Shown: piece after piece, positions 7,614 to 40,068 of the stretch | How positions within the stretch are numbered: position 1 is the stretch's first letter | Layout of the letters: every line of letters starts with the position of its first letter | DNA from: Actinomycetes bacterium | GTDB lineage: Bacteria > Actinomycetota > Actinomycetes > Mycobacteriales > Mycobacteriaceae | Direction of reading: 5' to 3' | Length of the DNA: 54,823 nucleotides | Assembly (NCBI GenBank): GCA_023417985.1 | Contig: JAEZDV010000011.1 | Span: forward strand, 1 to 54,823 | Translations under genes and position numbers: made by a program | Notes under the pieces: model-generated | Told to the model about the DNA's origin: nothing | Database searches by the model: none | Seen by the model: only the letters and a program-made list of their open reading frames with translations

Positions 7614-7644
7614 CGGTGAAGTGATCGTGATCTCGGTGCCCGGC

Positions 7645-7661
7645 GGTGGGACAGTCCCACC
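7645..7661. terminator. Perfect 8-bp inverted repeat after ripA (terminator or protein site)
   Basis: GGTGGGAC-A-GTCCCACC, about 30 bp after the ripA stop. No U-tract. Confidence 0.4.
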
Positions 7662-7758
7662 CCGCGGGCCTGGCTCGGCGACACACTCAATCGACACCTG
7701 ACATAGTGGTGCAGCAGGCGATTTCCGGCGGATCAACGAAGGCGAAAGCGGTGGATTC

Positions 7759-10069: not shown

Positions 10070-10073
<4 letters not shown>
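9111..10073 (+). CDS. DUF58 domain protein
   Basis: [35 protein letters not shown]. 4-bp overlap with moxR. Confidence 0.92.
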
Positions 10074-11865
<1,792 letters not shown>

Positions 11866-11917
11866 CCTGCGGCCGTACCGGACCACATCCGAATCTCACT
11901 GGAGGATCGACACACTC

Positions 11918-12724: not shown

Positions 12725-12743
12725 CAGGTCAGGAGAGCACTCC

Positions 12744-13820: not shown

Positions 13821-13845
13821 GCCGGGGGCACCTCCCGCGTCGGTC

Positions 13846-14520: not shown

Positions 14521-14544
14521 GCTTCGAATGGTAGGCCTCCCGGA

Positions 14545-14563
14545 CGGTACAGATTCCGAACTG
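14545..14563. promoter_or_regulatory. Imperfect inverted repeat, candidate HxlR operator
   Basis: CGGTAC-N7-GAACTG in the divergent HxlR/methyltransferase gap. Confidence 0.35.
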
Positions 14564-14654
14564 GAAGCGATTCCGCCGACCTTCCTACCGTTGACGTGCA
14601 CCCGGAAACCTGTCGCACCGACGGACCGGGGTGCGCCCTGGGAGGAGATGTGTG

Positions 14655-15488
14655 ATGACCGAATCCGGCACGACACTCGAGGTCGATCGCGACCTCAAAT
14701 CGAAGCACCGGGCCATGTGGGCGCTCGGCGACTATCCGGCCGTGGCGACGGAGCTGATCCCGTCGCTCGGCGAGACCCTGGTATCAGCATGCGGGGTCGG
14801 TGCCGACGACCGGGTGCTCGACGTCGCGGCAGGAGCAGGCAACGCCGCGATTCCCGCTGCGCTGACCGGTGCCGACGTGGTGGCGACCGACCTGACGCCC
14901 GAATTCTTCGACGCCGGCCGGCGCGACGCCGAGCGAGTCGGCGCCGCTGTGAGCTGGCAGGAAGCTGACGCCGAAGCCCTGCCATTCGACGATGCGAGTA
15001 CCGATGTGACCCTTTCGTGCGTCGGGGTGATGTTCGCGCCGCACCACCAGGCGGCGGCAGACGAACTCGTGCGTGTCACCCGGCCGGGAGGCCGGATCGG
15101 GTTACTCAGCTGGACACCGGGCGGATTCATCGGCCGGATGTTCGCGACCATGAAGCCCTACGCACCCGCTCCACCGCCCGGGGTGCAACCACCACCGCTG
15201 TGGGGAGACGAAACCCACGTGCGGACGTTGCTGGGAAACCGCGTCCAGGACGTACGGGTCCGCACGGAGTCGTTGCGCGTCGACCGGTTCACCACCGGCG
15301 AAGAGTTCCGCGACTTCTTCAAGGCGAACTACGGTCCGACCATCGCCGTCTACCGGGCGATCGCCGAAGACCCCGAGAAGGTCGACGCCCTCGATCGCGC
15401 TCTTGCCGATCTCGCACGGGAGCACGACGTGGGTGGCGGGACGATGAATTGGGAGTATCTGCTGTTCACCGCACGTCGCGCGGCGTGA
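14655..15488 (+). CDS. Class I SAM-dependent methyltransferase
   Basis: GGAGGAG RBS. VLDVAAGAG motif I, ADAEALPFDD, ELVRVTRPGG. Confidence 0.9.
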   Translation: MTESGTTLEVDRDLKSKHRAMWALGDYPAVATELIPSLGETLVSACGVGADDRVLDVAAGAGNAAIPAALTGADVVATDLTPEFFDAGRRDAERVGAAVSWQEADAEALPFDDASTDVTLSCVGVMFAPHHQAAADELVRVTRPGGRIGLLSWTPGGFIGRMFATMKPYAPAPPPGVQPPPLWGDETHVRTLLGNRVQDVRVRTESLRVDRFTTGEEFRDFFKANYGPTIAVYRAIAEDPEKVDALDRALADLAREHDVGGGTMNWEYLLFTARRAA

Positions 15489-15495
15489 ACGCGAT

Positions 15496-16305
15496 TCAGC
15501 CGCGCGTGGCGGCGTGCAGGGCGGCGTCGACAGCGCCGACCCGAGCGTTTCTCACAGCCGCCCACAACGGGCGCAGGGCGTCCTCACGAGCCGCGGTCGC
15601 AGTCGCCGATGCCGCGCGCAGACCACGACCGCGACCGGCGACGGTGAGGATCGCGGCTACCTGATCGGCGGAGTCGAGGATTCGTACCGCCCGTCGAGGA
15701 ATCGTCTCCGGGTAGCGGTGACGTGCCGACTCCGCGATCTCCGCCGCGATCTCCGCGCGCGGGTCGCTGCTCTGCCCGTCGTCGCCGACCGTGTGTATCG
15801 CGGCGAGCGTCGTGGCGGCCTCCCGCACTGCTTCCCGCATCGTGAACTCGGCCTCGCCGAGTCCGGGGAGTCCGGTGGGCTCGGGTATCACCGGTACCGC
15901 GAACACGGTCCAGCGGAGGACGTCGGGCCCCTCGCCGGTCGGGACGAGGCCGAGGCCCGGCGTTCCCGGCGCGCCGACGAGCACTCCCTCGCCGGCGGCT
16001 GTCGCCGCCGCGGAGAATTCGAGGCCGGCGGGCAGGCCGCGCACATCACCCGGAGACGGCAGCAGCAACCGGATGCCCGCACCCCCGGCGGGATCGGCGC
16101 GCCGGATCACCGCGAGCAGTCCGGCGGCGCCGTCCTCCGGATTCGGGCCGGTCAGCCCGGCGCGGTGCTGCGCCCCGGCTTCGGCGGCAACGACGAGGTG
16201 CATCGGCGCCCACTCGTACAGGGCATCGATGACCTCGTCGGGCGCCGCGTGGCCGGACAACCATGCGCCGGCCCACAGCGTCAGGCTCTGGCTCGGGGAA
16301 CTCAC
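15496..16305 (-). CDS. Conserved hypothetical protein (Rv1486c-like)
   Basis: GTG start inferred (SPSQSLTLWAGAWLSG). High GC3. Conserved position after ferrochelatase. Confidence 0.7.
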   Translation of the reverse strand: MSSPSQSLTLWAGAWLSGHAAPDEVIDALYEWAPMHLVVAAEAGAQHRAGLTGPNPEDGAAGLLAVIRRADPAGGAGIRLLLPSPGDVRGLPAGLEFSAAATAAGEGVLVGAPGTPGLGLVPTGEGPDVLRWTVFAVPVIPEPTGLPGLGEAEFTMREAVREAATTLAAIHTVGDDGQSSDPRAEIAAEIAESARHRYPETIPRRAVRILDSADQVAAILTVAGRGRGLRAASATATAAREDALRPLWAAVRNARVGAVDAALHAATRG

Positions 16306-16382
16306 GGAACGAGCATAGGACGCGGTACCGCCCGGCGTGGCGACGACCGCACGCCGCGGTCGTTGTCCTAACGTTGACCGGC

Positions 16383-17255
16383 GTGAGTCCACGCGATAGC
16401 TACGGCGACATCTTTGCCGGACACAACCGCAAGCAGAAGCGGGCAGTCCCGGAACTCGAGGCCGAGAAGGACCTCGTGGTCGAAGACGCAGCGTCGGGAT
16501 GGTGCGGCGCGATCGTCGGCATCGAACGCACCTACGACGGCGACTTCGTGCGCCTCGAGGACGGACAGCGCCGGACCCGACTGTTCGCGATGCGGCCTGC
16601 CGCGTTCCTGATCGACGGTGCGCCCGTGACCCTCGTCCGGCCCGAGGCGCGGCCGGCGGCGCAGACACCGGCCCGCTCGGCTTCCGGCTCGACGCGAGTC
16701 GAGGGACTGCGGGCGCGGGTCGCTCGCGGCAGCCGCATCTGGGTCGAGGGCGTGCACGACGCGGCTCTGGTCGAACAGGTGTGGGGTCACGATCTTCGTG
16801 TGGAAGGGGTCGTCGTCGAACAACTCGAGGGGCTCGACAACCTCGCGGAGCGCCTCGCCGAGTTCCGGCCCGGGCCGGGACGCCGGGTCGGTGTCCTAGC
16901 CGACCACCTCGTCACCGGGTCGAAGGAGGAGCGGCTCACCGCGAACCTCGGCCCGCATGTCATGGTCACCGGCCACCCGTACATCGACGTGTGGGAAGCG
17001 GTGCGGCCCAAGGCCGTCGGCATCGACGCCTGGCCGACGATTCCGCGTGGGCAGGACTGGAAGACCGGCGTCTGCCGCGAACTCGGCTGGGGAACCCCGC
17101 AGGAGGGCTGGCGCCGGGTCTACAACTCGGTGTCGTCGTTCCGGGATCTCGAAGCACCCCTGATCGGTGCCGTCGAACGACTCGTGGACTTCGTCACCGA
17201 ACCCGACGCCGGCCGCGCCGCAGACGCCGGACCCTCAGAGAGTCCGGGGCGGTGA
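16383..17255 (+). CDS. DUF3097 family protein
   Basis: RSASGS, SRIWVEGVHDAALVEQVWGHDLRVEGVVVE, GHPYIDVWEAV. Confidence 0.85.
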   Translation: MSPRDSYGDIFAGHNRKQKRAVPELEAEKDLVVEDAASGWCGAIVGIERTYDGDFVRLEDGQRRTRLFAMRPAAFLIDGAPVTLVRPEARPAAQTPARSASGSTRVEGLRARVARGSRIWVEGVHDAALVEQVWGHDLRVEGVVVEQLEGLDNLAERLAEFRPGPGRRVGVLADHLVTGSKEERLTANLGPHVMVTGHPYIDVWEAVRPKAVGIDAWPTIPRGQDWKTGVCRELGWGTPQEGWRRVYNSVSSFRDLEAPLIGAVERLVDFVTEPDAGRAADAGPSESPGR

Positions 17256-17532
17256 ACAGGTCGACGGTGTCCCGTCTGTGGCCTCGAACCACACCGGCCG
17301 GGGCTGTGCCGGCGCCGGTCCCGCCGCCACGGTGACGAAATCCGTCCAGGAGACGCCGGAGGAACTGGTGAGGGGAGGGTGGGGCAGGGTGCCCCGAGCC
17401 AGTCGCGTTCCGTCGTCACGGACGGTTCGCCGCCGTGCCGAGCATTGCGCCCGCCTCGGTGGGTGTGGTCGGGAGAACCGCTCCGCACGCCTGTGACCTG
17501 CGTCTCTGCCGCGATGTCCGAATTATGGTTCG

Positions 17533-17973
17533 ATGGTTCCTGTGGTGGCACTGATATGGCTGATTGCCGGCGCAGCTCTGGCGGCGGCGGAAGCACTCAC
17601 CGGAGACTTCGTGTTGCTGATGCTCGGCGGCGCTGCCTTGGGCACAGCCGGGGTGTCCGCTGCGACCGACGTGCCGGTGTGGATCGACGCCGGGGTGTTC
17701 GCGGTGTTCTCGCTCGTGCTCCTGCTCGGCGTTCGGCCCATCCTGCGGCGCAGATACTCCGTTCCACCTGCGCTGACGACGGGTGTCGAGGCGTTGCCCG
17801 GCAAGCACGCCCTGGTGCTCGAGGAGGTCGGTGAGCACGCGGGTCGCGTGAAGATCGACGGGGACGTATGGACGGCGCGGCCGCTCGACGTCACCGAAGT
17901 GTACGAACCCGGAACAACCGTGACTGTGATGCAGATCGACGGCGCGACAGCCGTCGTATGGAGGGGTGTCTGA
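17533..17973 (+). CDS. NfeD-like membrane protein
   Basis: Hydrophobic N-terminus, C-terminal OB-like GRVKIDGDVWTAR. Paired with SPFH gene. Confidence 0.9.
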   Translation: MVPVVALIWLIAGAALAAAEALTGDFVLLMLGGAALGTAGVSAATDVPVWIDAGVFAVFSLVLLLGVRPILRRRYSVPPALTTGVEALPGKHALVLEEVGEHAGRVKIDGDVWTARPLDVTEVYEPGTTVTVMQIDGATAVVWRGV

Positions 17974-17976
17974 CCT

Positions 17977-19209
17977 ATGGAAGCGTTGATCGTGCTCGCC
18001 GTCGTGGTGGTGCTGGTCGTGATCGTGGTGGTGAAGTCGGTGGCCCTGGTGCCGCAGGCGGAAGCCGCCGTCATCGAACGGCTGGGCCGCTACTTCCGCA
18101 CCGCGTCGGGGCAACTCACGTTCCTGGTGCCGTTCGTCGACCGCATCCGCGCGAAAGTCGACCTGCGCGAACGGGTGGTGTCGTTCCCACCGCAGCCGGT
18201 GATCACCAAGGACAACCTCACGCTGAGTATCGACACGGTGGTCTACTTCCAGGTCACCAACCCGCAGGCTGCGGTGTACGAGATCAGCAACTACATCGCC
18301 GCCGTCGAGCAGCTCACGGTCACGACACTGCGCAACGTGGTCGGCGGGATGACCCTCGAAGAGACCCTGACCTCCCGGGACTCGATCAACGGGCAGCTTC
18401 GCGGCGTCCTCGACGAGGCGACCGGCCGCTGGGGCCTGCGGGTCGCACGCGTCGAGCTCAAGAGCATCGATCCGCCGCCGTCGATCCAGGAGTCGATGGA
18501 AAAGCAGATGAAGGCCGACCGGGAGAAGCGCGCGACGATTCTCACGGCCGAGGGCCACCGCGAAGCCGCGATCAAGACGGCCGAGGGTGACAAGCAGGCC
18601 CGCATCCTCTCGGCAGAGGGATCGAAGCAGGCCGCGATTCTCGAGGCGGAGGCCGAGAGGCAGTCTCGGATTCTGCGAGCTCAGGGCGACCGCGCAGCGC
18701 AGTACCTCGAGGCGCAGGGCGAGGCGAAGGCCATCGAGAAGGTCTTCGCGGCGATCAAGGCCGGCAAGCCCACACCCGAGATGCTCGCCTACCAGTACCT
18801 GCAGACGCTTCCGCAGATGGCCAAGGGCGACGCGAACAAGGTGTGGCTCGTACCCAGCGACTTCGGCGACGCCCTCAAGGGGTTCGCGGGAGCGCTCGGC
18901 GCCAAGGGTGAAGACGGAGTGTTCCGGTTCGAACCGAGCGCGGTCGACGAAGATCTTCAGCGCCCCGAGGACGACTCGGCTGAGGTCAGTGACTGGTTCG
19001 ACATGAAGACCGACCCGGTGGTGGCGAAAGCGGTCGCCGAGGCCGAGGCCGTCGCGCGCAAGCCCGTCGACCCCGCGGTCCCGGCCGCAGCCGGAGAACG
19101 TCCGTCGAACGCCGGCGGATCGTCGGCCCTGCCGGCACCCGAGCCCGCACAAGAGGGGCTCGCCCCGTCGCTCGAAAAGGTAGTCGGCGAAGAGGTTCCG
19201 AAGCAGTAG
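17977..19209 (+). CDS. SPFH/band 7 (stomatin-like) protein
   Basis: N-terminal TM, VIERLGRY, QPVITKDN, TTLRNVVGGMTLEETL, AEREKRA-like coiled-coil repeats. Confidence 0.95.
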   Translation: MEALIVLAVVVVLVVIVVVKSVALVPQAEAAVIERLGRYFRTASGQLTFLVPFVDRIRAKVDLRERVVSFPPQPVITKDNLTLSIDTVVYFQVTNPQAAVYEISNYIAAVEQLTVTTLRNVVGGMTLEETLTSRDSINGQLRGVLDEATGRWGLRVARVELKSIDPPPSIQESMEKQMKADREKRATILTAEGHREAAIKTAEGDKQARILSAEGSKQAAILEAEAERQSRILRAQGDRAAQYLEAQGEAKAIEKVFAAIKAGKPTPEMLAYQYLQTLPQMAKGDANKVWLVPSDFGDALKGFAGALGAKGEDGVFRFEPSAVDEDLQRPEDDSAEVSDWFDMKTDPVVAKAVAEAEAVARKPVDPAVPAAAGERPSNAGGSSALPAPEPAQEGLAPSLEKVVGEEVPKQ

Positions 19210-20319: not shown

Positions 20320-20355
20320 CGGTCAAGTTTGAGTCCTTGATTCTTGGAAGTCAAG
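20306..20355 (-). promoter_or_regulatory. Leaderless promoter with TCAAG/CTTGA repeats
   Basis: Minus strand TTGACT (20354-20349), 17 bp, CAAACT (20331-20326), 6 nt, ATG (20319). TCAAG at 20307, 20323 and 20351, CTTGA at 20336 on plus. Confidence 0.55.
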
Positions 20356-20782
20356 CCTCAGGGATTGTTCCGAAGTCGTCGCGAGGCATTCCGAAGTACT
20401 CCTCGTCGGTGACAGGCTCGAGCCAATGGACCGTATCGTGCTCGTCGTCCGTTTCGTTGATGGCGAGGTGAGTCATCAGCCGCGTCGGTGCTGCCCCGTG
20501 CCAGTGTTCCTCGTCCGCCTCGAACAGCACACGATCGCCAGGCTTGATCTCTTCGACGGGTCCACCTCGGCGCTGGCACAACCCGATTCCCTCCGTGACG
20601 AAGATCGTCTGGCCGAGGGGGTGCCGGTGCCAGTGTGTGCGGGCACCGGGCATGAAGTGCACGAGACCCGCCGACACCCGGGAGGGTGGCGGTGAAGCGG
20701 CAACCGGATCGATGTAGACGTCTCCGGTGAACCAGTCCTCCGGCCCCGTGCCGGTATCGAGCGTGTTGCGAACGATCAGCAT
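20351..20782 (-). CDS. Cupin domain protein
   Basis: WFTGDVY, FMPGARTHWHRHPLGQ, EEHWHGAAP...MTHLAI cupin metal motifs. Confidence 0.9.
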   Translation of the reverse strand: MLIVRNTLDTGTGPEDWFTGDVYIDPVAASPPPSRVSAGLVHFMPGARTHWHRHPLGQTIFVTEGIGLCQRRGGPVEEIKPGDRVLFEADEEHWHGAAPTRLMTHLAINETDDEHDTVHWLEPVTDEEYFGMPRDDFGTIPEA

Positions 20783-21098: not shown

Positions 21099-22118
21099 AT
21101 GCGCGGAGTCGTTCTCGAGCGACCAGGTGAGGTCCGGATCGCGGATCGTCCCGACCCGGTGATCGTCGAACCGACCGACGCGGTCATCCGGTTGGCCGCC
21201 TCCTGCATCTGCGGCTCGGATCTGTGGCCCTACCGCGGTGCCGACCCGGCAGAGCACATGCCGATGGGTCACGAATACGTCGGGACGGTCACCGAGATCG
21301 GCGACGCGGTATCGAACATCGCGGTTGGGGACTTCGTCGTGGGTTCGTTCTTCGCATCCGACAACACCTGCGAGATCTGCCGCGCCGGATACCAGTCCCG
21401 GTGTGTTCACGCGGTACCGATGGGCGCCATCGGGACACAGGCCGAGTACGCACGGGTCCCGTTGGCCGACGGCACGCTGGTCGGCACACCGGGCACACCC
21501 GACTCGGACCTTCTTCCCTCGCTGCTCGCGGCGTCGGACGTGCTCGGAACAGGTTGGTTCGCCGCCGTGGCTGCGGAAGCCGGACCGGGTAAGACGGTCG
21601 CGGTCGTCGGGGACGGTGCGGTCGGCTTGCTGGGGGTCCTGGCAGCGAAACAGCTGGGCGCGGAGCGGATCATCGCCATGAGCCGCCACGCTGATCGCCA
21701 AGCGTTGGCGCGCAGGTTCGGAGCCACCGACATCGTCGAGGAACGTGGAGACGAAGGGGTAGAGCAGATCAAGGACCTCACTTCAGGTCTGGGAGCGCAC
21801 TCCGTGATCGAGGCCGTCGGGACGCAGCAGTCGATGATGCAGGCGATTCGGTCCACCCGCCCGGGCGGACACGTCGGTTATGTCGGTGTCGCCCATGACG
21901 TCTCGCTGCCCGGTGGAGAACTGTTCTTCGCCGAGGTGCATCTGCACGGCGGGCCTGCTCCGGTGCGACGCTTCCTGCCGCAGTTGATCGAGCTGATCTG
22001 GAACCGCGCTATCGACCCGGGAGCCGTGTTCGACCTCACCTTGCCTCTGGAGGAGGCGGCCGAGGGGTACCGCGCGATGGACGAACGTCGAGCGATCAAG
22101 GTGATGCTCACCCTCTGA
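21099..22118 (+). CDS. Zinc-dependent alcohol dehydrogenase (MDR family)
   Basis: CICGSDLW, GHEYVG, GDGAVG Rossmann motif. AAGGAG RBS. Confidence 0.92.
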   Translation: MRGVVLERPGEVRIADRPDPVIVEPTDAVIRLAASCICGSDLWPYRGADPAEHMPMGHEYVGTVTEIGDAVSNIAVGDFVVGSFFASDNTCEICRAGYQSRCVHAVPMGAIGTQAEYARVPLADGTLVGTPGTPDSDLLPSLLAASDVLGTGWFAAVAAEAGPGKTVAVVGDGAVGLLGVLAAKQLGAERIIAMSRHADRQALARRFGATDIVEERGDEGVEQIKDLTSGLGAHSVIEAVGTQQSMMQAIRSTRPGGHVGYVGVAHDVSLPGGELFFAEVHLHGGPAPVRRFLPQLIELIWNRAIDPGAVFDLTLPLEEAAEGYRAMDERRAIKVMLTL

Positions 22119-22197: not shown

Positions 22198-23847
22198 ATG
22201 GAAAACACTGATCCTGAAGTCGACGACGTAGGCCGCCGGAAGTGGATAGGACTCGGCGTCCTGGCCCTCGGACTGTCGTTGATCGTCATCGACGGGACAA
22301 TCGTCAATGTCTCCCTGCCGGTCATCATCGAGGACCTGAACCTGGATCTGACCGACGCGCAGTGGATCAACAGCATCTATTCGGTGGTATTCGCGGCATT
22401 GCTGCTCACGACGGGAAGCCTCGGCGACCGAGTGGGCCGCCGGTTGCTGTTCATCATCGGGGTTCTCGTATTCATCGCCGGTAGCCTCGCCGCAGCGTCG
22501 TCGGACACCTCGACGACGTTGATCACCGCACGCGTCGTGCAGGGTATCGGTGGCGCGCTCGTGCTGCCGTGCACGCTCTCGACGGTCAACGCCACTTTCC
22601 GCGGACGTGACCGGGCGATCGCGTTCGGGGTGTGGGGCGCGGTGATCTCCGGTATGGCAGCTGTGGGCCCGCTGCTCGGAGGGTGGCTGACGACATCCTT
22701 CACCTGGCCGTGGATCTTCCTCGTCAATATTCCGGTCGGCATCATCGTCATCATCGGTGCCCTGCTGTTCGTTCCCGAGACACGGTCGAAGGCCGAGGTG
22801 CCCGGTCTCGATTACCTGGGACCCGTCCTGAGCGCAATCGGGTTCGGCTCGTTGGTGTTCGCCCTCATCGAGGGACAGAAGATCGGCTGGTGGAAGCCCA
22901 TCTCGGACCTGAGAATCCCGGGGCTCACGTGGTCCGAGTCCGCTCCGATCTCGGCGACCCCGGTGGTCGCTGCTATCAGCATCGTCGTTCTCGTGGCGTT
23001 CGTGCTGTGGGAGCGGTACCGCGCGAACCTGCGGCGCTCCGCGATCCTCGACCTGAGCCTGTTCCGGATCCGAACGTTCAGCTGGGGCAATATCACCGCG
23101 CTGACCGTTGCGATCGGGGAGTTCGGCATGCTTCTCGTACTGCCGCTGTTCCTTGTGAACGCGTACGGCCTCAGTACGCTTGGCAGCGGTTACGTGCTGT
23201 CGGTGATGGCGCTGGGCGCGTTCGCTTCGGGCGCTGCGGCCCGCTTCGTCACCGCGAAGCTCGGGGCACCGCGGACCGTCGTCTTCGGTTTGTGCCTCGA
23301 AGTGATCGGGGTGCTCGCCTTTGCGCTGTACCTCCGCCCGTCTGCGAACGTGGTCGTGCTGGCCCTTCTGCTTGCGATCTACGGCATGGGGTTGGGACTG
23401 GCGTCGGCGCAGCTCACCGGCACCGTGTTGGTCGACATCCCGACGTCGGAGTCGGGGGAGGGGTCCGCCATCCAGAGCACGTCCCGGCAGCTCGGCGCAG
23501 CCCTGGGCACCGCCATCCTCGGGACCGTGCTCTCGCTGGGGTTGGCGCACAGTCTCACAGACCGCCTCGATTCGGGACCGCTACCGCCACAGGTGCAGTC
23601 CCAGCTGGTGGACGCTACCCGTGACTCCGCCGGCAGTACCATTCCGACCATCCGCGATCAGGGCGACACCGGCCGACTGGGTCCGGCCGGTCCCGAGACT
23701 GCGGACGAGTTGTCCGACGGTTTCGCGGACGCCACCAGGTGGTCGCTGTTCGCCGCTGCCGGATTCCTCGTGATCGGCCTGGCGGGTGCCACCCGCCTGC
23801 AACCGCGACGGCAGGTGGGAAACCCGGTCCCCGACAAGACCGGATAG
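22198..23847 (+). CDS. MFS drug:H+ antiporter (DHA2, EmrB/QacA-like)
   Basis: DGTIVNVSLP, GSLGDRVGRR motif A, ARVVQGIGG, WPWIFLVNIPVG. About 14 TM segments. Confidence 0.93.
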   Translation: MENTDPEVDDVGRRKWIGLGVLALGLSLIVIDGTIVNVSLPVIIEDLNLDLTDAQWINSIYSVVFAALLLTTGSLGDRVGRRLLFIIGVLVFIAGSLAAASSDTSTTLITARVVQGIGGALVLPCTLSTVNATFRGRDRAIAFGVWGAVISGMAAVGPLLGGWLTTSFTWPWIFLVNIPVGIIVIIGALLFVPETRSKAEVPGLDYLGPVLSAIGFGSLVFALIEGQKIGWWKPISDLRIPGLTWSESAPISATPVVAAISIVVLVAFVLWERYRANLRRSAILDLSLFRIRTFSWGNITALTVAIGEFGMLLVLPLFLVNAYGLSTLGSGYVLSVMALGAFASGAAARFVTAKLGAPRTVVFGLCLEVIGVLAFALYLRPSANVVVLALLLAIYGMGLGLASAQLTGTVLVDIPTSESGEGSAIQSTSRQLGAALGTAILGTVLSLGLAHSLTDRLDSGPLPPQVQSQLVDATRDSAGSTIPTIRDQGDTGRLGPAGPETADELSDGFADATRWSLFAAAGFLVIGLAGATRLQPRRQVGNPVPDKTG

Positions 23848-23873: not shown

Positions 23874-25430
23874 TCAGATCGGTCCGCGGCGGGCGGCGTC
23901 CTTCGCGTGGTGCAGGGCTTCCCTGAGCTGACGGCGGTCGTCGAACTCCCTGGTCGTGTGGCCGAAGCTCTGGTGCGGGTCGCTGCCGCGTCCCGCCACG
24001 ACCAGAACATCACCGCCGGTGGCGAATGCGACCGCAAGGTCGAACGCTCGGCGGCGGTCCGGTTCGACGAAAACCTCGGCCCGGCCGGCCGCGTGCGCAC
24101 CCTCGGCGACCGCCGCCCTGAGGTGATGTGGGTTCTCGGAAAACGGGCTCTCGTCGGTGACGACGACGATGTCTGCATACGTGGCGGCCGTGTGTCCGAG
24201 CGGGAATCGCTTGCCTGCATCCCGGTCGCCGGTCGCTCCGATGACGAGGATGAGACGCCCACCCGGTGTCAGTGAGCGGAGGAACGGCAACAACTGCTGT
24301 TGGCCCGGGGTGTTGTGCATGTAGTCCACGAGGGCGAGGAAATCCTGTCCGGCATCGATCCGTTCGAGACGGCCGGGAACGCCGCGCAGAGTCTCGAGGC
24401 CCGCCGCCGCGACCAGCACATCGGCACCGCTGGCGGCGAGGGATGTGAGAGCGGTCAGCGCGTTGCCCACCTGGTGCGGTCCGAGCAGTGACAACCGGAC
24501 TCGGGCATTTCCGTCACATGTGTGGACAATGAATTCGGTTCCCTCTGCACTGCAATGGATTTCGTCCGCGAACACATCCGCGCGGGTATCGCTGGCCGAA
24601 TGGGTCCACACAGGTATTTCCGTGATGGCGGCCAGCCTCCGGGCGTACTCGTCGTCTAGGTTGACCACGGCGGCCTGCGCACGCTCGGGTGTGAACAGCG
24701 CGGCTTTGGCTGCGAAGTAACGGTCCATCGTGCCGTGGAAGTCGAGGTGATCGGGGCCGAGGTTGGTGAACGCCACCGTGCGAAACCACACGCCGTCGAC
24801 CCGCCCTTGGCTGATGGCGTGCGAAGACACTTCCATCGGCACGGCATCCACAGCCTGCCGCCGGAATTCGGCGAGGGTGCGCTGGAGAACCGAGGCCTCG
24901 GGTGTCGTGTGTGTGGCCGGACGGGCGCCGGCGGGCCCGCGCACGGTGACACCGCTGATGATGCCGGTCACGATTCCGAGAGTCGTGAGCGCGGTGTCGA
25001 GGAGGTATGTCGCGCTCGTTTTGCCGTTCGTTCCGGTGACTCCATGGACATCCATCGCGCGAGACGGGTGCCGATGGATCCAGGACGCGAGCGGGCCCAC
25101 CCAGCGGCGCGGGTCCTCGACCACCAGCGTCGGGAGGTACCGGGAAGGCCGGTCGCTGAGGATCGCTACGGCGCCGCGCCTTGCAGCGTCGGCGTCGAAG
25201 GTGATGCCGTGGAAGCTGTTTCCGGGCAGGGCGGCGTAGAGGTCGCCCGGTTGCACGGTACGAGAGTCGTCGCTGACGCCGGTGACAACGCTCGCGTGTC
25301 GCTGTGGGGGCGCCTCACTCAGTGCATCCCCGAGAAGAAGGGCGAGGTCGCCGATCGTCGTTCTGCGGGGATCGTCGGGTACCGGCGAGGCCGACGGGGA
25401 TACCGTGCGGTAGTCGGGGTCGCGGGTCAC
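23874..25430 (-). CDS. MurE-like Mur ligase paralogue (stand-alone, atypical substrate motif)
   Basis: DSRTVQPGDLYAALPG, GVTGTNGKTS, TTPE, MEVSSH, DHLDFHGTM..YFAAK, VPGRLE, GDRD..KR. GTG start overlaps the stop of the upstream gene. Confidence 0.88.
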   Translation of the reverse strand: MTRDPDYRTVSPSASPVPDDPRRTTIGDLALLLGDALSEAPPQRHASVVTGVSDDSRTVQPGDLYAALPGNSFHGITFDADAARRGAVAILSDRPSRYLPTLVVEDPRRWVGPLASWIHRHPSRAMDVHGVTGTNGKTSATYLLDTALTTLGIVTGIISGVTVRGPAGARPATHTTPEASVLQRTLAEFRRQAVDAVPMEVSSHAISQGRVDGVWFRTVAFTNLGPDHLDFHGTMDRYFAAKAALFTPERAQAAVVNLDDEYARRLAAITEIPVWTHSASDTRADVFADEIHCSAEGTEFIVHTCDGNARVRLSLLGPHQVGNALTALTSLAASGADVLVAAAGLETLRGVPGRLERIDAGQDFLALVDYMHNTPGQQQLLPFLRSLTPGGRLILVIGATGDRDAGKRFPLGHTAATYADIVVVTDESPFSENPHHLRAAVAEGAHAAGRAEVFVEPDRRRAFDLAVAFATGGDVLVVAGRGSDPHQSFGHTTREFDDRRQLREALHHAKDAARRGPI

Positions 25431-26461
25431 ATCGTCGAATACCCGCTGGCGCTCGAAACGATGCTCCCAGATCCGAGCATCGAGCTTCGACCGGTGGTCC
25501 AAGCCTCCAGCAGTCGGTCGGCCAAGAGACCCTCGACGTAGTCGAACGCCCGCATACCGAACACCACGTCCGCCGCGAGGGCCGGCTCCCTGGTCACCAG
25601 GTCCTCCACCACATCGGTGCGGAGAACCTGTTCGTGCACCGCATCCGCCTCGACGTGTTCTTCGTAGAACCGCAGGCACTGCGCCGGTGCGTGAAGGCGG
25701 TGCAGTGCCTCCACCAAGCGCCGGCATCCCGGTGACGAGGTGATCTCGGCGGCCGCGAACTGTCCGACCGCTGCGCCACGCAGGGCGCGGTGCAGCCCGA
25801 AGAGGGACATCAGATTGACGGGCGTCATGCTCTCGGCCGGAACATGGTCGAGGTACGCCAGATACGCCGGATTCAGTCCGGCAGCCGAAAGGAGTTCGGC
25901 GAACATCGCGGAGTGCATCCGATCGCCACGACCGCCGCCGTACTCGTCGAACTCGACCGCCGTGAAGGCCGCCTTCGCCTGCCCCGTCAACCGGGGGATC
26001 GCCCATGCCTGCGGATCCCCTTCCTTGAGGTGATAGAGCGATCGATGGGCGAAATACTCCTGCATCTGCGGCCACGTTCCGTGCTCGCGGAGATGCCACG
26101 AAGGCCCCGTACCGGTTTCCGGTTCTGCGGACATGGCGTCCATCTCGCCGAGGGCGTCGTCTCCCGGTGGGACGAGATCACGTAACGCGTCGAGGAAGAG
26201 GCGCTCGAGTTGTGCCCGCATGCGGAGGAGGTCGGGCTGCCACTCCCAGGCGTCGTCCACCGCCGGAAAGCCCTGATAGTGGAGCTCGTAGCAGGTGTAG
26301 AGAGCCAACTGCACGTCTTCGCCGAGAGGCTCGCCGGTGGATCTTGTCGGCAGCAGAACCCGATCCGACGGATCCGTCGACAGGGCAACGATCACTGCCT
26401 CCGAGACGGGGCCGCGAGGGGTGGGGAGCGGGTGTGGCGGGAGTTCGCACGACCGGGTCAC
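25427..26461 (-). CDS. Iron-containing redox enzyme (heme-oxygenase-like diiron oxidase, HDO fold)
   Basis: LYHLKEGDP, EFDEYGGG...MH, AAAE, FYEEHVEADAVHE putative diiron ligands. Confidence 0.85.
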   Translation of the reverse strand: MTRSCELPPHPLPTPRGPVSEAVIVALSTDPSDRVLLPTRSTGEPLGEDVQLALYTCYELHYQGFPAVDDAWEWQPDLLRMRAQLERLFLDALRDLVPPGDDALGEMDAMSAEPETGTGPSWHLREHGTWPQMQEYFAHRSLYHLKEGDPQAWAIPRLTGQAKAAFTAVEFDEYGGGRGDRMHSAMFAELLSAAGLNPAYLAYLDHVPAESMTPVNLMSLFGLHRALRGAAVGQFAAAEITSSPGCRRLVEALHRLHAPAQCLRFYEEHVEADAVHEQVLRTDVVEDLVTREPALAADVVFGMRAFDYVEGLLADRLLEAWTTGRSSMLGSGSIVSSASGYSTM

Positions 26462-26590
26462 CCTTGCACGCTATCGCAGTCTTCCCCGGGCGCGAGCCCT
26501 GGTCGATCCGGCGGCTTCGGTGAAGTGTCGGCGCTTCCCTCGTACCCTCGAAGTACGGAGCGCCGCCGCTCGGCGAGGAGAGGACGTGAC

Positions 26591-27304
26591 ATGAACGCAT
26601 GGCCCGAGTCGCAGGAACTGGCTCGCCGCATGGCGGCACTGGCGCGAGAGTTCTTCCGTCCGAGTAGTCTCGCCGACACTTTGAGCGGCGTTACCGCGGC
26701 AGCAGTCGAGCTGATCCCCAACGCCGAGTGGGCCGACATCCTGACCGTGACCGGTGGGCGGACGGTGGAATCGTTCGCGGCCACTGCGAAGCTGCCGGAA
26801 GAACTCGACGCCGTGCAGGAGAAACTCGGCGAAGGGCCGTGTCTGGAGGCTGCACAGAAGAGCCTGATCGTGCGATCCGACGACCTTCGGACCGAAACGC
26901 GCTGGCCGCGCTTCGCCGCTGAGGCGGTGCAGGCGGGTGTGCTGAGCACCCTGTCGTTCCAGCTGTACCTCGACAGCGGATCGATGGGCGCACTCAACCT
27001 GTTCTCGTCGAAGCCGGGTGCATTCGATGTCGACGCGGAGGCGATCACCGAAGTCTTGGCTGCGCAAGCGGCGATGGCACTGAGCGCCGCACGCGGCCAC
27101 GAACAGTTCTCGTCGGCGCTGGCGAGCAGAGACATCATCGGCCAGGCCAAAGGCATGATCATGGAACGCTTCGGTGTCGATTCCGTGCGCGCGTTCGAAT
27201 TGCTGCGGAAGCTGTCGCAGGACAGCAACATCCCCCTCGCGGACATCGCAGCACGGCTGGTGGATTCGGGATCTGCGCGCAGCGGGGACGACACCGAGCA
27301 CTGA
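26591..27304 (+). CDS. GAF and ANTAR domain protein
   Basis: GAGGAGAGG RBS. GAF segment Q..LGEGPC...RWP.F...GALNLFS. ANTAR ALASRDIIGQAKGMIMERF...AFELLRKLSQDSNIPL. Confidence 0.93.
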   Translation: MNAWPESQELARRMAALAREFFRPSSLADTLSGVTAAAVELIPNAEWADILTVTGGRTVESFAATAKLPEELDAVQEKLGEGPCLEAAQKSLIVRSDDLRTETRWPRFAAEAVQAGVLSTLSFQLYLDSGSMGALNLFSSKPGAFDVDAEAITEVLAAQAAMALSAARGHEQFSSALASRDIIGQAKGMIMERFGVDSVRAFELLRKLSQDSNIPLADIAARLVDSGSARSGDDTEH

Positions 27305-27501: not shown

Positions 27502-27807
27502 ATGACTGCTCGACAGGAACACGTGGTTCTGGTGGGTACGCCCGCCGACGCTGCCGCGGCCGACCACTGGGCTGCAGTGCAGAATTGGGCGGAGGAAAAC
27601 GGCTGGGCCGTCTCGAGCGAACTCCCGGCCATGGGCGAGGTCTGGGGTGCAGTGGCGACCGAGGAGGTCCTCGACGGGATATGTTCTCCCGCCGAAGCCG
27701 AGCTGATCTATCGGGTACGCGCGGCAGGAATTCCGCTCTTCAGCGTCCATCAGGCCCCCGCAATGCTTGCATCCCTCACCGTGCCCGAGGCGCCGTACGC
27801 AGCTTGA
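27502..27807 (+). CDS. Small hypothetical protein (101 aa)
   Basis: GGAG RBS, ATG 27502, protein-like alpha/beta composition. Confidence 0.65.
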   Translation: MTARQEHVVLVGTPADAAAADHWAAVQNWAEENGWAVSSELPAMGEVWGAVATEEVLDGICSPAEAELIYRVRAAGIPLFSVHQAPAMLASLTVPEAPYAA

Positions 27808-27880
27808 GGTGTCATCGCCCGGCTTGTGCGCCGGTCCTCGGGACGACGACTCGGGGTCGACAACCGGCCCACGCCGCCTG

Positions 27881-27908
27881 GTAACTTCTTCGTATGACGA
27901 CGAGTTAC
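27881..27908. promoter_or_regulatory. Imperfect palindrome upstream of the monooxygenase
   Basis: GTAACT-TCTTCGTATGACGACG-AGTTAC. Confidence 0.35.
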
Positions 27909-28009
27909 ATACACTTCGTCCGGGGGTCGGCGACAAGCGGCGTGCCCGGATCCCGCGGGTCGCAGCGGCCCTTCGTCGTGCCCGATGCTGTCACGCTGGG
28001 CGCGCGGTC

Positions 28010-29494
28010 ATGAGCCATCACGACGTGGTGATCGTGGGGGCCGGGATCTCCGGCATCGGCGCGGCAGTCGCACTCCAGCAACACGGAATCGACGACTTCG
28101 TTCTCTTGGAGAAGGGGGATGCGGTCGCCGGCACCTGGCGGGACAACACGTACCCCGGATGTGCGTGCGACGTCCCGTCGGCACTGTATTCGTACTCGTT
28201 CGCCCCGAATCGCGAGTGGACCCGCTTGTTCGCCGGGCAGGAAGAAATCCGGCGGTACATCGAGCGTGTGGCGGGTGAACACCGGATCTACCCCCGTATC
28301 CGTTTCGGCACCGAAATGCGGAGCGCACGGTGGGACGCTCCGTCCCACCGGTGGATCGTCGCCACATCCTCCGGAGTGGTCACAGCGGGTGCGCTCATCG
28401 CAGCGGCGGGCCCGTGGCACGAGCCCCTCGTTCCGGACATCGCGGGGCTCGACACCTTTCCGGGCGAAGTGTTCCACTCTTCGCGATGGAACCACCGTTA
28501 CGATCTCACCGGCAAACGTGTAGCGGTCGTCGGCACAGGGGCCTCCGCGGTGCAGTTCGTGCCGGAGGTCGAACGGAAAGCCGCTGCCCTGCACCTGTAT
28601 CAGCGCACCGCCCAATGGGTACTTCCCAAGCCCGACTACGCGTTACGCCGCGCCGAACGTGCCGTCCTGCGCCGGGTGCCGGGTGCCCACTCCGCGCTCC
28701 GGCGTGTCGAATACTCCGTCATGGAGGCGCTCGGACTCGGATTCCGAAACCCCTGGATCATGAGGTTGATTCAGCAACTGGGCAAGGCATGGCTGCGGCT
28801 TCAGGTGAGCGACCCCGGATTGCGCAGAACGCTGACGCCCCAGTACACCCTGGGTTGTAAACGCCTGCTGTTCTCCAACGAGTACTACCGCGCGTTGGCG
28901 CAACCGACCGTCGAAGTGCACGCCACCGCGGTCGCATCGGTGCGGGGGAACGTCGTGGTCGGGGCGGACGGATCCGAAACCGCCGTGGACGCGATCATCT
29001 TCGGTACCGGCTTCCACATTCTCGACATGCCGGTTGCGAGCCGGATCTTCGACGAGCATGGCCGCAGTCTCGACGAGCACTGGAAGGGCAGTCCCCAGGC
29101 GTATCTCGGCACCACCATCGCCGGATTCCCGAACGCGTTCGTGCTGCTGGGCCCCTCGCTCGGTACCGGCCATACCTCGGCATTCACGATTCTGGAGGCG
29201 CAACTCGGCTACGTCGCCCAGGTGCTGACCCGTGCACGTCAGGAGGAGTGGACTCGTGTGGAGCCGCGCCGGGCCGCGCAGGAGGCCTTCAATGCCCGCG
29301 TCCAGAAAGCGCTCGCCGGTACGGTGTACAACAGCGGTGGCTGCCGGAGTTACTTCTACGACGTCAACGGCCGCAACAGCTTCAACTGGCCGTGGTCGAC
29401 CCGGCGGATGCTGAAGGAGCTTGCGACGTTCGACGAGACGGCATTCGACGTGACGGCGGCCGCTCACACCGACGTGACACCGGCGCCGTCCTGA
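28010..29494 (+). CDS. Flavin-containing monooxygenase (Baeyer-Villiger type)
   Basis: GAGISG, GTWRDNTYPGCACDVPS, FPGEVFHSSRW fingerprint, GTGASAVQ, GCKR. Confidence 0.93.
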   Translation: MSHHDVVIVGAGISGIGAAVALQQHGIDDFVLLEKGDAVAGTWRDNTYPGCACDVPSALYSYSFAPNREWTRLFAGQEEIRRYIERVAGEHRIYPRIRFGTEMRSARWDAPSHRWIVATSSGVVTAGALIAAAGPWHEPLVPDIAGLDTFPGEVFHSSRWNHRYDLTGKRVAVVGTGASAVQFVPEVERKAAALHLYQRTAQWVLPKPDYALRRAERAVLRRVPGAHSALRRVEYSVMEALGLGFRNPWIMRLIQQLGKAWLRLQVSDPGLRRTLTPQYTLGCKRLLFSNEYYRALAQPTVEVHATAVASVRGNVVVGADGSETAVDAIIFGTGFHILDMPVASRIFDEHGRSLDEHWKGSPQAYLGTTIAGFPNAFVLLGPSLGTGHTSAFTILEAQLGYVAQVLTRARQEEWTRVEPRRAAQEAFNARVQKALAGTVYNSGGCRSYFYDVNGRNSFNWPWSTRRMLKELATFDETAFDVTAAAHTDVTPAPS

Positions 29495-30266: not shown

Positions 30267-32876
30267 ATGGGTTTCGTGCTGAGTCTCGAAGACCTGAATC
30301 GAACAGATTCGGACGTCGCCGGTGGCAAGGGGGCGAATCTCGGAGAACTGATCCACGTTCCCGGGACGCACGTCCCCGTCGGGTTCTGTATCACGACGGA
30401 CGCCTTTCGCCGGGTGATGGAGGAGATGCCGTCCGTCGACGTACTGCTCGGCAGGTTGTCGTCACTCGCACCGGACCGGCACGACGAACTCCGGCGACTC
30501 GGTGCGGAGATCCGTGAGGCGATCGCAGAACATGCGGTTCCGGACGACGTCGCCTCGGATATCACCGGCGCACTCGCCCGTTTCGGGGAACAACAGGCGT
30601 GGGCGGTCCGGTCCAGTGCCACCGCGGAGGATCTCCCGTCGGCTTCGTTCGCCGGTCAACAGGATTCGTTCCTGAACGTCGTGGGCCGCGACTCGATTCT
30701 GCGGGCGGTCACACGATGCTGGGCTTCGTTGTTCACCGAACGCGCGGTCGCCTACCGCGTGCAAAAAGGCTTCGACCACCGGACGGTGCGGATGGCGGTC
30801 GTGGTACAGCAGATGGTTTTCCCGCAGGCGGCGGGGATGATGTTCACCGCAGACCCGCTCACGTCCGATCGCACGGCCGCTTCCGTCGAGGCCACATTCG
30901 GCCTCGGTGAAGCATTGGTATCGGGTGCCGTGATCCCCGATGTGTACACGGTGCGGGGCACGGACATCACCGCGACGATCTCCTCGAAGCACCATTCGGT
31001 CGAATCCGCGCCCGATGGAGGAACGCGTCTGCGGGATGTATCCCCGGATCGACGGTTCGAGGCGGTGTTGTCCGACGAGCAGATCCTCCGGCTCGTGAAG
31101 TTGGGCCGGGAGATCGAATCGCACTTCGGGTGTCCGCAGGACATCGAATGGTGCCTGGTCGACGATGAAGTCCACATCGTCCAGAGTCGGCCGATCACAA
31201 CGCTTTTCCCCATCCCGGTGTCAGACGACGACGAGCAGCACGTCTACGTTTCGGTCGGTCACCAGCAGATGATGACCGACGCCATGAAGCCGTTGGGAAT
31301 CTCCGTGTGGCAGATGACGAGTCCCGCACCCATGCGGACCGCGGGCGGACGGTTGTTCGTCGACGTCACGGAGGCGTTGTCGTCCCCGCTGAGCCGGGAA
31401 TCACTGGTGGAAGCGCTGGGGGCATCCGATCCGCTCCTCGGGGATGCGCTTCGCGTGATCGTTGCCCGAAGGGGATTCGTCCCCGGCTCCGACGCCCCGG
31501 CCGGTGATCGAAGCATCGGTGTGGCAGAACCGATCGACGCAGACCCCGAGGTGGTCACCGAACTGATCGCGCGCTCCGAATCCTCTCTGGCAGAGCTGAA
31601 ACGGGAGATCCGGGGGCGGTCGGGTACGGAGCTGATCGAGTTCGTCGAAACGGACATCCAGGAGTTGAGACGGATTCTGTTCGACCCGCGAAGCCTTCAG
31701 GTGATCACCGCCGCGATGGATTCGGCTCGGTGGTTGTCCGATCGCCTCGACAGCTGGCTCGGGGAGAGGGGCGCGGCCGACACCCTCGCACAATCGGTTC
31801 CCCACAACGTCACGTCCGAAATGGGTCTGGCGCTCCTCGACGTCGCGGACCGGATTCGTCCCCGGCCGGATGTGGTGGCGTTTCTGCGGCACGTCGAGGA
31901 ATCCGGGCACGACGACGAGACCTTTCTGGACGACCTGGGCAGCGTGGCGGGGGGCGGGGAGGCCCGAGCGGCGATCGAGGGGTTTCTCGGCACGTACGGG
32001 ATGCGGTGCGCGGGCGAGATCGATATCACCCGGCCGCGGTGGAGCGAACGACCGACGGCACTCGTCCCGGTGATCGTCGGCAACGTCGACAACTTCACGG
32101 CCGGCGCCGCGCAGCGGCGTTTCGAGCAAGGTCGACGTGCCGCCGAGACGAAGGAACGCGAAGTGCTGGAACGATTGCGCGCCTTGCCGGATGGGGAGCG
32201 CAAAGCGGACGAGACCGGGCGTATGATCGCTCGTCTCCGCACGTTCTCCGGATATCGCGAGTATCCGAAGTACGGCATGGTCGCCCGTTATTTCGTGTAC
32301 AAGCAGGCGCTCTCGAACGAGGCCGCACGACTGGTGCAGGACGGCGTGCTGCGCCGTGATGACGACATCTTCTACCTCACCTACGACGAGTTGCGTGAGG
32401 TGGTCCGCACGCACCGAGGATGCGACGACCTCGTCCGCGACCGGCGGCGGGCATTCGCAGTCCACGAAACTCTCACCCCGCCGCGGGTGCTCACGTCGGA
32501 CGGCGAAGCTCTGTCGGGGGAGTACCGGCGCGAAGACGTTCCGGAGGGCGCGGTGCCCGGCACGCCGGTCTCCGCCGGAGTTGTCGAAGGACGAGCTCGG
32601 GTCGTTTCGGACATGGCCCGGGCCGATCTCCGGGCAGGCGACATTCTCGTCACGGCGTACACCGATCCGAGCTGGACCCCGTTGTTCGTCTCGATCAAGG
32701 GACTGGTCACCGAGGTGGGTGGGCTGATGACCCATGGCGCCGTGGTCGCAAGGGAATACGGCGTGCCCGCCGTGGTCGGCGTGCAGCACGCGACGCGGCT
32801 GATTCGCGACGGACAACGTATCCGCGTGAACGGATCGGAAGGTTATGTCGAGATCGTGTCCGAGCCGGGCGCTTGA
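30267..32876 (+). CDS. rph: Rifamycin-inactivating phosphotransferase (PEP-synthase-like)
   Basis: ATP-grasp AGGKGANLGEL...AVRSSATAEDLP..SFAGQ. Central VYVSVGHQQMMTD and GYREYPKY. C-terminal swivel GGLMTHGAVVAREYG. This is the RPH domain order, not PpsA. Confidence 0.88.
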   Translation: MGFVLSLEDLNRTDSDVAGGKGANLGELIHVPGTHVPVGFCITTDAFRRVMEEMPSVDVLLGRLSSLAPDRHDELRRLGAEIREAIAEHAVPDDVASDITGALARFGEQQAWAVRSSATAEDLPSASFAGQQDSFLNVVGRDSILRAVTRCWASLFTERAVAYRVQKGFDHRTVRMAVVVQQMVFPQAAGMMFTADPLTSDRTAASVEATFGLGEALVSGAVIPDVYTVRGTDITATISSKHHSVESAPDGGTRLRDVSPDRRFEAVLSDEQILRLVKLGREIESHFGCPQDIEWCLVDDEVHIVQSRPITTLFPIPVSDDDEQHVYVSVGHQQMMTDAMKPLGISVWQMTSPAPMRTAGGRLFVDVTEALSSPLSRESLVEALGASDPLLGDALRVIVARRGFVPGSDAPAGDRSIGVAEPIDADPEVVTELIARSESSLAELKREIRGRSGTELIEFVETDIQELRRILFDPRSLQVITAAMDSARWLSDRLDSWLGERGAADTLAQSVPHNVTSEMGLALLDVADRIRPRPDVVAFLRHVEESGHDDETFLDDLGSVAGGGEARAAIEGFLGTYGMRCAGEIDITRPRWSERPTALVPVIVGNVDNFTAGAAQRRFEQGRRAAETKEREVLERLRALPDGERKADETGRMIARLRTFSGYREYPKYGMVARYFVYKQALSNEAARLVQDGVLRRDDDIFYLTYDELREVVRTHRGCDDLVRDRRRAFAVHETLTPPRVLTSDGEALSGEYRREDVPEGAVPGTPVSAGVVEGRARVVSDMARADLRAGDILVTAYTDPSWTPLFVSIKGLVTEVGGLMTHGAVVAREYGVPAVVGVQHATRLIRDGQRIRVNGSEGYVEIVSEPGA

Positions 32877-39833: not shown

Positions 39834-40068
39834 GGGGTGTGAGCGTACTCCCGGCCGGCCGCGTCGCCGGAGTTGCTCCGGCGGGCGAGCTCGCCTCACT
39901 GCCGCACTCTTTATCTATCGTTAGAGAATCTGTGGCAATCCCCACAGCAGGTGTCCAGAGTGTGCGGCTAGCATCACAGCGACAAACGTTTAACCTTTTC
40001 GGGATCATCCGCCCCGGCCGACAACGCCGCCGAACAGACCCTGCATGCCGCAGTAGGAGGAATCGCAC

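Follow-up and report, generated by a model that had tools for sequence, protein, structure and literature searches.

Does an oxygenase gene that overlaps the gene for a stray cell wall ligase mark a new biosynthetic pathway, or have two accessory genes come together in one lineage? The question arises at positions 23874 to 26461 of a 54,823-bp stretch of DNA from an Actinomycetes bacterium (contig JAEZDV010000011.1; the whole stretch is hereafter called the window). Here, on the minus strand, a gene for a heme-oxygenase-like diiron oxygenase (HDO) is followed by a gene for a paralog of MurE, the peptidoglycan ligase that adds the third residue of the stem peptide. A sequence-only reading of this locus had proposed that the HDO makes a nonstandard amine or amino acid and that the ligase attaches it to a cell wall precursor or another carboxylate (i.e., a new pathway). 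Our comparisons favor, with a probability of roughly 55%, a different account, in which two accessory genes, each with different partners elsewhere, were fused into an operon in a single lineage.

Distribution of the pair and neighborhoods of the two families

Relatives of the HDO are encoded by at least 553 of 600 pattern-matched stretches. For a survey of gene neighborhoods, an HDO alignment was scanned against one genome per species, and the 80 best loci, the R. coprophilus locus not being one of them, were taken together with as much as 10 kb of either flank; at least 2 kb of DNA downstream of the HDO gene was available in 77 of these loci and at least 5 kb in 73. The ligase was found in none of the 80 loci (E ≤ 1e-3, within approximately 10 kb). 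The HDO genes of other species keep different company. A convergent small gene for a CDGSH iron-sulfur protein (approximately 75 amino acids [aa]) lies within 700 bp of the HDO gene in 69 of 80 loci and anywhere in the locus in 73, and a HemK2/MTQ2-like methyltransferase gene lies within 1.5 kb in 71 and anywhere in the locus in 74. These counts were obtained by tblastn; open reading frame (ORF) calls followed by blastp gave the methyltransferase in 47 of 80 loci and no CDGSH gene. The resulting HDO-CDGSH-methyltransferase trio is exemplified by L036:9249-11922 and is also present in plasmid loci L083 to L085. On Kitasatospora, Streptomyces, and Curtobacterium plasmids, it lies amid genes for SigB/SigF-type sigma factors, RsbW/STAS/SpoIIE partner-switching proteins, CsbD, and GAF-ANTAR proteins, and in one Mycobacterium locus an RsbU-PAS-SpoIIE-kinase gene stands immediately upstream of the HDO gene.

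A second recurrent neighbor is a YbdK/GCS2 carboxylate-amine ligase gene, which is located immediately upstream of the HDO gene in three loci (L043, L047, and L075) and, with a DDAH-like gene in between, on a Kitasatospora plasmid. Two database proteins (P0243 and P0245) are YbdK/GCS2-HDO fusions, one of them with a DDAH-like domain fused as well; both are single-member clusters, so read-through gene calls are possible. The window HDO is orthologous to the HDO of this actinobacterial module (i.e., HDO, CDGSH, and MTQ2, with or without YbdK and DDAH-like proteins), the family having 58 to 72% identity across many genera, and it is nested in the HDO family of the module in the tree described below. 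Unlike the module, the window lacks CDGSH, MTQ2-like, YbdK, and DDAH-like genes, as well as CinA and DUF4383 genes (E ≤ 1e-5), and a MurE paralog occupies the downstream position.

The closest named relatives of both window proteins belong to Rhodococcus coprophilus, whose HDO is 86% identical and whose ligase falls in an 84% cluster. In four sets from this species, the ligase and the HDO have consecutive accession numbers, and both clusters have members on two short contigs. A third adjacency is likely on a 6797-bp metagenomic contig, which is the longest one for both P0005 (ligase, 75%) and P0125 (HDO, 78%). A 5479-bp contig common to P0116 (ligase) and P0137 (HDO) was not counted as an adjacency. 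Antrihabitans cavernicola has both genes on one 326-kb contig, approximately 98 accession numbers apart. The HDO phylogeny, a quick IQ-TREE tree, comprised 88 rows, of which 80 came from genome loci, 3 from plasmid loci, 4 from database proteins, and 1 from the window. It grouped the window, R. coprophilus, and P0125 sequences in one clade with a Shimodaira-Hasegawa-like approximate likelihood ratio test (SH-aLRT) support of 96. The sister of this clade was Rhodococcus sp. SMB37 (support, 99), whose HDO gene has no ligase, CDGSH, or MTQ2 gene alongside. Because the adjacency is confined to one small Rhodococcus lineage, it looks like a recent operon fusion and not like a conserved new pathway. 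The simplest history is that the usual partners of the HDO gene were lost first and that the ligase gene then arrived downstream once.

The ligase also has other partners. Two Rhodococcus megaplasmids carry a ligase of the same clade (named the TDESP clade after a motif described below), which on one of them (pR8L1) is split into two pieces, only the second of which is annotated; the megaplasmid location and the split copy indicate that the ligase gene is accessory. At both plasmid loci (L081:8328-10389 and L082:8323-10390), the ligase gene directly follows a gene for a 174-aa CinA-family protein, in the order DUF4383, HemK2/MTQ2-family methyltransferase, CinA family, and ligase, the methyltransferase being annotated only on the pJ1-2-type plasmid L081. 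Glycosyltransferase genes are located near the ligase gene on both. The HDO gene is absent from both of these loci and from the whole plasmids.

The recurring co-occurrence of an HDO with a MurE paralog, for which the sequence-only reading had suggested a check, was thus not borne out by the survey, given the 80 loci, the two plasmid-borne ligases, and the separated genes of Antrihabitans. Found only in the window, in R. coprophilus, and probably on one metagenomic contig, the adjacency is nearly strain specific, a situation that the same reading had set against its own proposal. The literature searched (subscription-only papers being outside its coverage) yielded nothing on the HDO-ligase pair, the TDESP clade, or the HDO-CDGSH-methyltransferase trio.

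The HDO and the MurE paralog

The HDO matches Pfam family PF14518 (Haem_oxygenas_2) over residues 134 to 306 (E = 3.1e-55; 187.1 bits versus a gathering cutoff of 28.9). This is the only domain found in the protein, with no cupin domain fused to it; the nearest cupin is a separate ORF (20351-20782) approximately 5 kb away. Among solved structures, phmmer ranked HrmI best (1.7e-8), followed by SznF (approximately 4e-7). Alignment with SznF places E173, H183, E239, H269, D273, and H276 of the HDO on the six core metal ligands E215, H225, E281, H311, D315, and H318, and E147 on the seventh ligand, E189; none of the seven varies among 18 aligned homologs. According to the RohS report, the seventh Glu, on auxiliary helix 2, has been seen only in RohS and SznF, and UndA, BesC, and AetD are without it (PMC13133933). 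That report describes this Glu as marking an HDO subgroup with substrate-independent peroxo-diiron formation, i.e., the N-oxygenases (PMC13133933). By these sequence criteria, the window HDO is an N-oxygenase-type HDO, N-oxygenation being one of the activities that the sequence-only reading had listed for such enzymes.

Similarity to the characterized enzymes is nevertheless limited. SznF (6m9r and 6vzy) falls into the same seven-ligand subgroup, that of the N-oxygenases in the RohS report, but the match spans only residues 145 to 304. The window HDO also differs from it in having no fused cupin and no SznE-kind N-methyltransferase alongside in the window. Of the N-oxygenases HrmI/BelK and RohS (9n1a and 9pfx), HrmI is, like the window protein, a stand-alone HDO of similar length; however, its match covers only residues 167 to 303, the RohS match is marginal (E = 0.15), and the window HDO belongs to a family widespread in many genera, unlike a pathway-specific natural product enzyme. 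Within this family, the three ligase-linked HDOs differ from the 73 CDGSH-linked ones at two positions beside metal ligands: H151Q, four residues past E147 (H in 73 of 73 elsewhere), and Q184S, adjoining H183 (Q in 70 of 73 elsewhere).

The ligase carries the three Pfam domains Mur_ligase, Mur_ligase_M, and Mur_ligase_C and the P-loop GTNGKTS. It passes the NCBIfam MurE subfamily model TIGR01085 (410.5 bits versus a cutoff of 257.3) and narrowly misses the best equivalog, NF001124 (460.5 versus 476); models for MurF, MurC, MurD, Mpl, FolC, cyanophycin synthetase, and pseudomurein ligase all failed to reach their own cutoffs, with scores nowhere near those of the MurE models. Residues 26 to 507 align with Mycobacterium tuberculosis MurE (2wtz) at 1.1e-94. 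The ATP site and the site for the UDP-N-acetylmuramoyl (UDP-MurNAc) peptide are formed in Mur ligases by motifs that include GTNGKTS, TTPE, DSR, and HG. The window ligase has GTNGKTS, TTPE, EVSSH, NLxxDHLD, GDRDxGKR, the AK lysine, and, toward the N terminus, DSR and HG, and 117 close homologs keep them all.

What sets the ligase apart is the site of the third substrate. In MurE of Escherichia coli and M. tuberculosis, the DNPR motif holds meso-diaminopimelic acid (DAP). The DDNPR of 2wtz is replaced by DESPF in the window ligase, and GKGHE is replaced by GRGSD. DNPR occurs in 0 of 119 alignable sequences (drawn from the query and its 120 best homologs, one truncated and one frameshifted entry being left out), all of which have a T/S-D-E/D-S-P-like motif and GRG-x-D/E. 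The residue that follows DESP, at the place of the arginine, is highly variable (F, Y, H, L, N, E, G, and others). These replacements indicate that the ligase probably does not add meso-DAP, an activity that the sequence-only reading had named as a refutation of its proposal. Judging from the motifs, we conclude that the protein is an active Mur ligase whose third-substrate site would no longer fit the distal carboxylate of meso-DAP. An Arg/Pro difference in NLxxDH was considered as a marker of changed D-Glu recognition and was dropped, because canonical representatives vary there too.

The TDESP ligases form a well-delimited group. A motif census of the query and 150 representatives (151 sequences) gave x-DNPR in 131, TDESP in 6 (the query included), other variants in 11, and an unreadable motif in 3. 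An exhaustive search of 1.84 billion representatives placed four full-length clade members at 411 to 532 bits and one fragment at 383.4 bits; next came a long MurE/MurF-type protein at 382.7 bits, and ordinary MurE proteins began at approximately 348 bits. In a FastTree phylogeny of 120 tips (17 chosen clade members and 103 representatives of 440 to 600 aa, with longer fusions and fragments left out), the 19 TDESP tips were monophyletic (support, 0.999), with no intruder. Named carriers belong to Rhodococcus, Nocardia, Gordonia, Dietzia, Williamsia, Prescottella equi, Antrihabitans, a few Mycolicibacterium, Kineococcus, Quadrisphaera, and one Streptomyces. A protein atlas search returned only the query protein's own family.

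Thus, the ligase resembles MurE (2wtz; E. coli 1e8c and 7b53) in its three-domain architecture and in the catalytic and DSR/HG motifs. It differs from MurE in the two replaced motifs, in lying outside the division and cell wall (dcw) cluster (a location typical of murE, not an absolute one), and in belonging to a separate clade below the equivalog cutoff, with relatives that are plasmid borne and dispensable in some strains. We have not filed it as MurE proper, because it lacks DNPR and scores below the equivalog cutoff. Another MurE paralog recruited from the canonical wall pathway is plant PAP11 (8w9z and 8r5o), which matches the window ligase at E values of 1e-66 to 1e-75; PAP11 is a eukaryotic plastid RNA polymerase subunit, whereas the window ligase is bacterial and has kept its catalytic motifs.

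Locus anatomy and genomic setting

Table 1. Features at and next to the HDO-ligase locus (window coordinates)
Feature	Coordinates	Strand	Description
HDO gene	25427..26461	minus	344 aa; GTG start 26461, stop TGA 25427; heme-oxygenase-like diiron enzyme of the SznF/RohS seven-ligand type
MurE-paralog ligase gene	23874..25430	minus	518 aa; GTG start 25430, stop TGA 23874; TDESP clade member
GTGA overlap	25427..25430	minus	HDO stop TGA 25429-25427 and ligase start GTG 25430-25428; read off the sequence
DHA2-family efflux gene of the major facilitator superfamily	22198..23847	plus	PF07690, E = 5.5e-49; TIGR00711, 256.1 > 230.2; convergent on the ligase 3' end
GAF-ANTAR regulator gene	26591..27304	plus	237 aa, with GAGGAGAGG ahead of its ATG start; divergent from the operon
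Intergenic region, HDO/GAF-ANTAR	26462..26590	divergent	129 bp; presumed operon promoter region

At the junction, the minus-strand codons are ...ACG ATG TGA for the HDO and GTG ACC CGC for the ligase, so that GTGA (25430-25427) contains both the HDO stop and the ligase start. Possible 4-bp start/stop overlaps were found in 2 of the 26 codirectional neighbor pairs in a rough gene list of the window; such an overlap is therefore uncommon but not unique, and it fits a single operon. The HDO start at GTG 26461 is supported by L12, P13, G17, and S20, which are invariant and all lie upstream of the start in a shorter database call of 322 aa. The ligase start is supported by the equal length (518 aa) of the R. 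coprophilus ortholog. The ligase frame is open for 741 codons (23874-26099, minus strand), and thus overlaps 669 bp of the HDO gene, out of frame with it; long shadow ORFs of this sort are typical of high-G+C DNA, and this one could mislead gene callers on the ligase start.

Scans for transcription signals gave few leads. There were no matches to a SigF/SigB-type promoter (GTTT-N14-18-GGGTA) in the window and no sigma-70-like sites in the scan; a lone GGGTAC occurs near position 26544 of the intergenic region, without a -35 box. Terminator-like sites in the window were no more frequent than in shuffled sequences, and none was convincing. The HDO leader folded no better than shuffles (z = 0.59), and Rfam gave no credible match at the leader and one weak hit elsewhere (26745-26868), far below the gathering score. 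We infer cotranscription of the HDO and ligase genes from the overlap alone.

A tblastn search of the window with the ligase (E ≤ 1e-3) returned only the ligase itself, and Pfam scans of 47 other window ORFs detected no Mur, MraY, MurG, or Fts families. The anatomy described from the sequence alone thus proved accurate, i.e., the overlap, the two family assignments (PF14518 for the HDO; the three Mur domains and TIGR01085 for the ligase), the orphan state of the ligase away from other mur or dcw genes, and the convergent DHA2 exporter, whose TIGR00711 score exceeds the cutoff (Table 1). The stops of the exporter and ligase genes are 26 bp apart. A DHA2 exporter gene is found near the HDO gene in just 1 of the 80 other loci (29% identity, approximately 5 kb away). 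The divergent regulator matches Pfam ANTAR (9.7e-20) and GAF_2 (1.5e-12), both scored on a longer ORF; GAF-ANTAR genes also occur near the HDO gene in 4 of the 80 loci and on the Streptomyces plasmid.

The G+C content of the window is 64 to 70%. One flank (1-19209) encodes aconitase, an 'Rv1476' family membrane protein, NlpC/P60, MoxR, and VWA proteins, enoyl-acyl carrier protein reductase, ferrochelatase, NfeD, and a Band 7 protein, and the other (40057-45975) encodes both methylmalonyl-CoA mutase subunits and MeaB. This gene order presumably corresponds to the Rv1473-Rv1496 region of M. tuberculosis, which it resembles. Between the Band 7 and mutase genes lie approximately 20 kb of unrelated genes, namely, those for a cupin, a zinc-dependent dehydrogenase, the DHA2 exporter, the HDO-ligase pair, the GAF-ANTAR protein, a flavin-dependent monooxygenase, a rifamycin phosphotransferase, NhaA, and a universal stress protein. 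The pair therefore occupies a variable stretch of a conserved chromosomal region.

Three genes of this stretch deserve mention in their own right. The 869-aa product of 30267-32876 (plus strand) scores 1409.5 bits against the NCBIfam model for rifamycin-inactivating phosphotransferase (cutoff, 999), and the gene is, by sequence, a probable intrinsic rifamycin resistance gene. The small cupin protein of 20351-20782 (minus strand) scores above the NCBIfam (R)-mandelonitrile lyase equivalog (175.8 > 140), and its gene adjoins that of the zinc-dependent dehydrogenase (21099-22118). Just past the GAF-ANTAR gene, 27767-29494 (plus strand) encodes a flavin-dependent monooxygenase of the flavin-containing monooxygenase/Baeyer-Villiger type, with no equivalog above the cutoff.

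Competing explanations and wider meaning

According to the fusion account, the tandem would have arisen in the R. coprophilus group from two independently widespread accessory actinobacterial genes, within the variable stretch of approximately 20 kb. The HDO would be an O2-activating diiron enzyme catalyzing N-oxygenation of an amine or guanidino group, most likely that of an amino acid, and in this lineage it would have lost its usual neighbors, the CDGSH protein (its likely electron donor) and the HemK2/MTQ2-like methyltransferase. The ligase, which appears catalytically intact by its motifs, would use ATP to activate the gamma-carboxylate of UDP-MurNAc-L-Ala-D-Glu or a close analog. It would then add an amine other than meso-DAP, since it has lost the two residues, an arginine and an asparagine, by which the distal carboxylate of DAP is held. 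The anatomy suggests that both genes are transcribed from the 129-bp divergent region shared with the GAF-ANTAR gene and that the ligase is translationally coupled through GTGA. The two proteins would then be coexpressed as part of a stress or accessory gene set, without forming a conserved two-enzyme pathway. Comparative genomics does not point to a substrate-product link between them, and we think such a link rather unlikely.

Several observations weigh against the fusion account. The adjacency, with its 4-bp overlap, persists at 84 to 86% protein identity and probably at 75 to 78% (i.e., 14 to 25% divergence), and such persistence suggests selection for coexpression. The HDO family recurs beside, or fused with, the ATP-dependent ligase YbdK/GCS2, so that an HDO plus a ligase may be a functional theme. 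A methyltransferase of the same MTQ2-like kind adjoins both families elsewhere, and the ligase contexts covered outside the clade with the adjacency number two, both on related Rhodococcus plasmids. The substitutions H151Q and Q184S may, from their positions by the metal ligands, reflect a new or shifted substrate or an altered electron-donor interface. In addition, neither the promoter nor the terminator scans yielded anything that backs an operon.

Some of these points would suit a dedicated pathway, in which an amino acid (e.g., lysine, ornithine, DAP, or an arginine derivative) is turned by the HDO into an amine, N-oxygenated or otherwise altered, that the ligase joins to UDP-MurNAc-L-Ala-D-Glu or another carboxylate. 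The GTGA coupling, the adjacency kept across the clade, and the clade-specific HDO changes beside the ligands fit such a route, as do the status of HrmI as the best solved match and the YbdK-HDO neighbors and fusions, which show the HDO family working with an amide ligase elsewhere. The ligase, moreover, has lost the DAP motif while the residues at the D413 and E468 places have stayed acidic (E and D, respectively). Nonetheless, the ligase is missing from all 80 other HDO loci, the ligase-bearing plasmids lack the HDO, and the Antrihabitans genes lie far apart. No electron-donor gene was found in the window, and the variability of the residue after DESP gives no hint of a pocket fitted to a single special product. 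We consider this pathway improbable on balance. Points in favor of the original proposal are the adjacency conserved over 14 to 25% divergence, the YbdK theme, and the ligand-side changes; what fails is recurrent pairing elsewhere. A more specific version, in which a stress-controlled operon of the R. coprophilus group makes an alternative peptidoglycan precursor, the orphaned HDO, altered beside its diiron site, yielding an N-oxygenated or otherwise nonproteinogenic diamino acid and the DNPR-less ligase installing it at stem-peptide position 3, strikes us as quite a long shot.

Two further explanations leave the HDO aside or take the ligase away from the wall, and to each we give little credence. 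The ligase might be a second, stress-expressed MurE that still adds meso-DAP or LL-DAP, with the HDO unrelated to it. Its passing of the MurE subfamily model, its near approach to the equivalog cutoff, and its full set of catalytic and nucleotide-sugar motifs speak for such redundancy; the replacement of both DNPR and GKGHE throughout a monophyletic clade speaks against it, since DNPR is the motif that holds DAP. Alternatively, the ligase might act on another carboxylate, to make a small metabolite or a recycling intermediate, or have a mainly noncatalytic role like that of plant PAP11. The location outside any wall synthesis gene cluster, the pairing with a CinA-family gene elsewhere, the plastid RNA polymerase proteins among the solved matches (8w9z and 8r5o), and the adjoining DHA2 exporter are in keeping with this. 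The exporter, however, is not a conserved neighbor, and the conservation of DSR, HG, TTPE, and the ATP site in 117 members favors an active enzyme that takes a UDP-MurNAc-peptide-like substrate.

The fusion account shifts attention from the pair to its members. With the pairing restricted to a single small lineage, the case for a new HDO-ligase pathway as such is weak, and the interest of the locus lies mainly in the two uncharacterized families and less in their local pairing. Were the alternative-precursor version true, mycolic-acid bacteria would have in the TDESP ligases a second position-3 ligase, one that remodels the wall under stress. The substrate of the TDESP clade, once known, could in any case bring to light a wall modification, a recycling route, or a metabolite new to these bacteria. 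The partnership of the HDO with the CDGSH protein and the MTQ2-like methyltransferase, which is very constant and often found amid general stress genes, points to a conserved oxygenase system that has so far gone unstudied and that comes with a candidate native electron donor.

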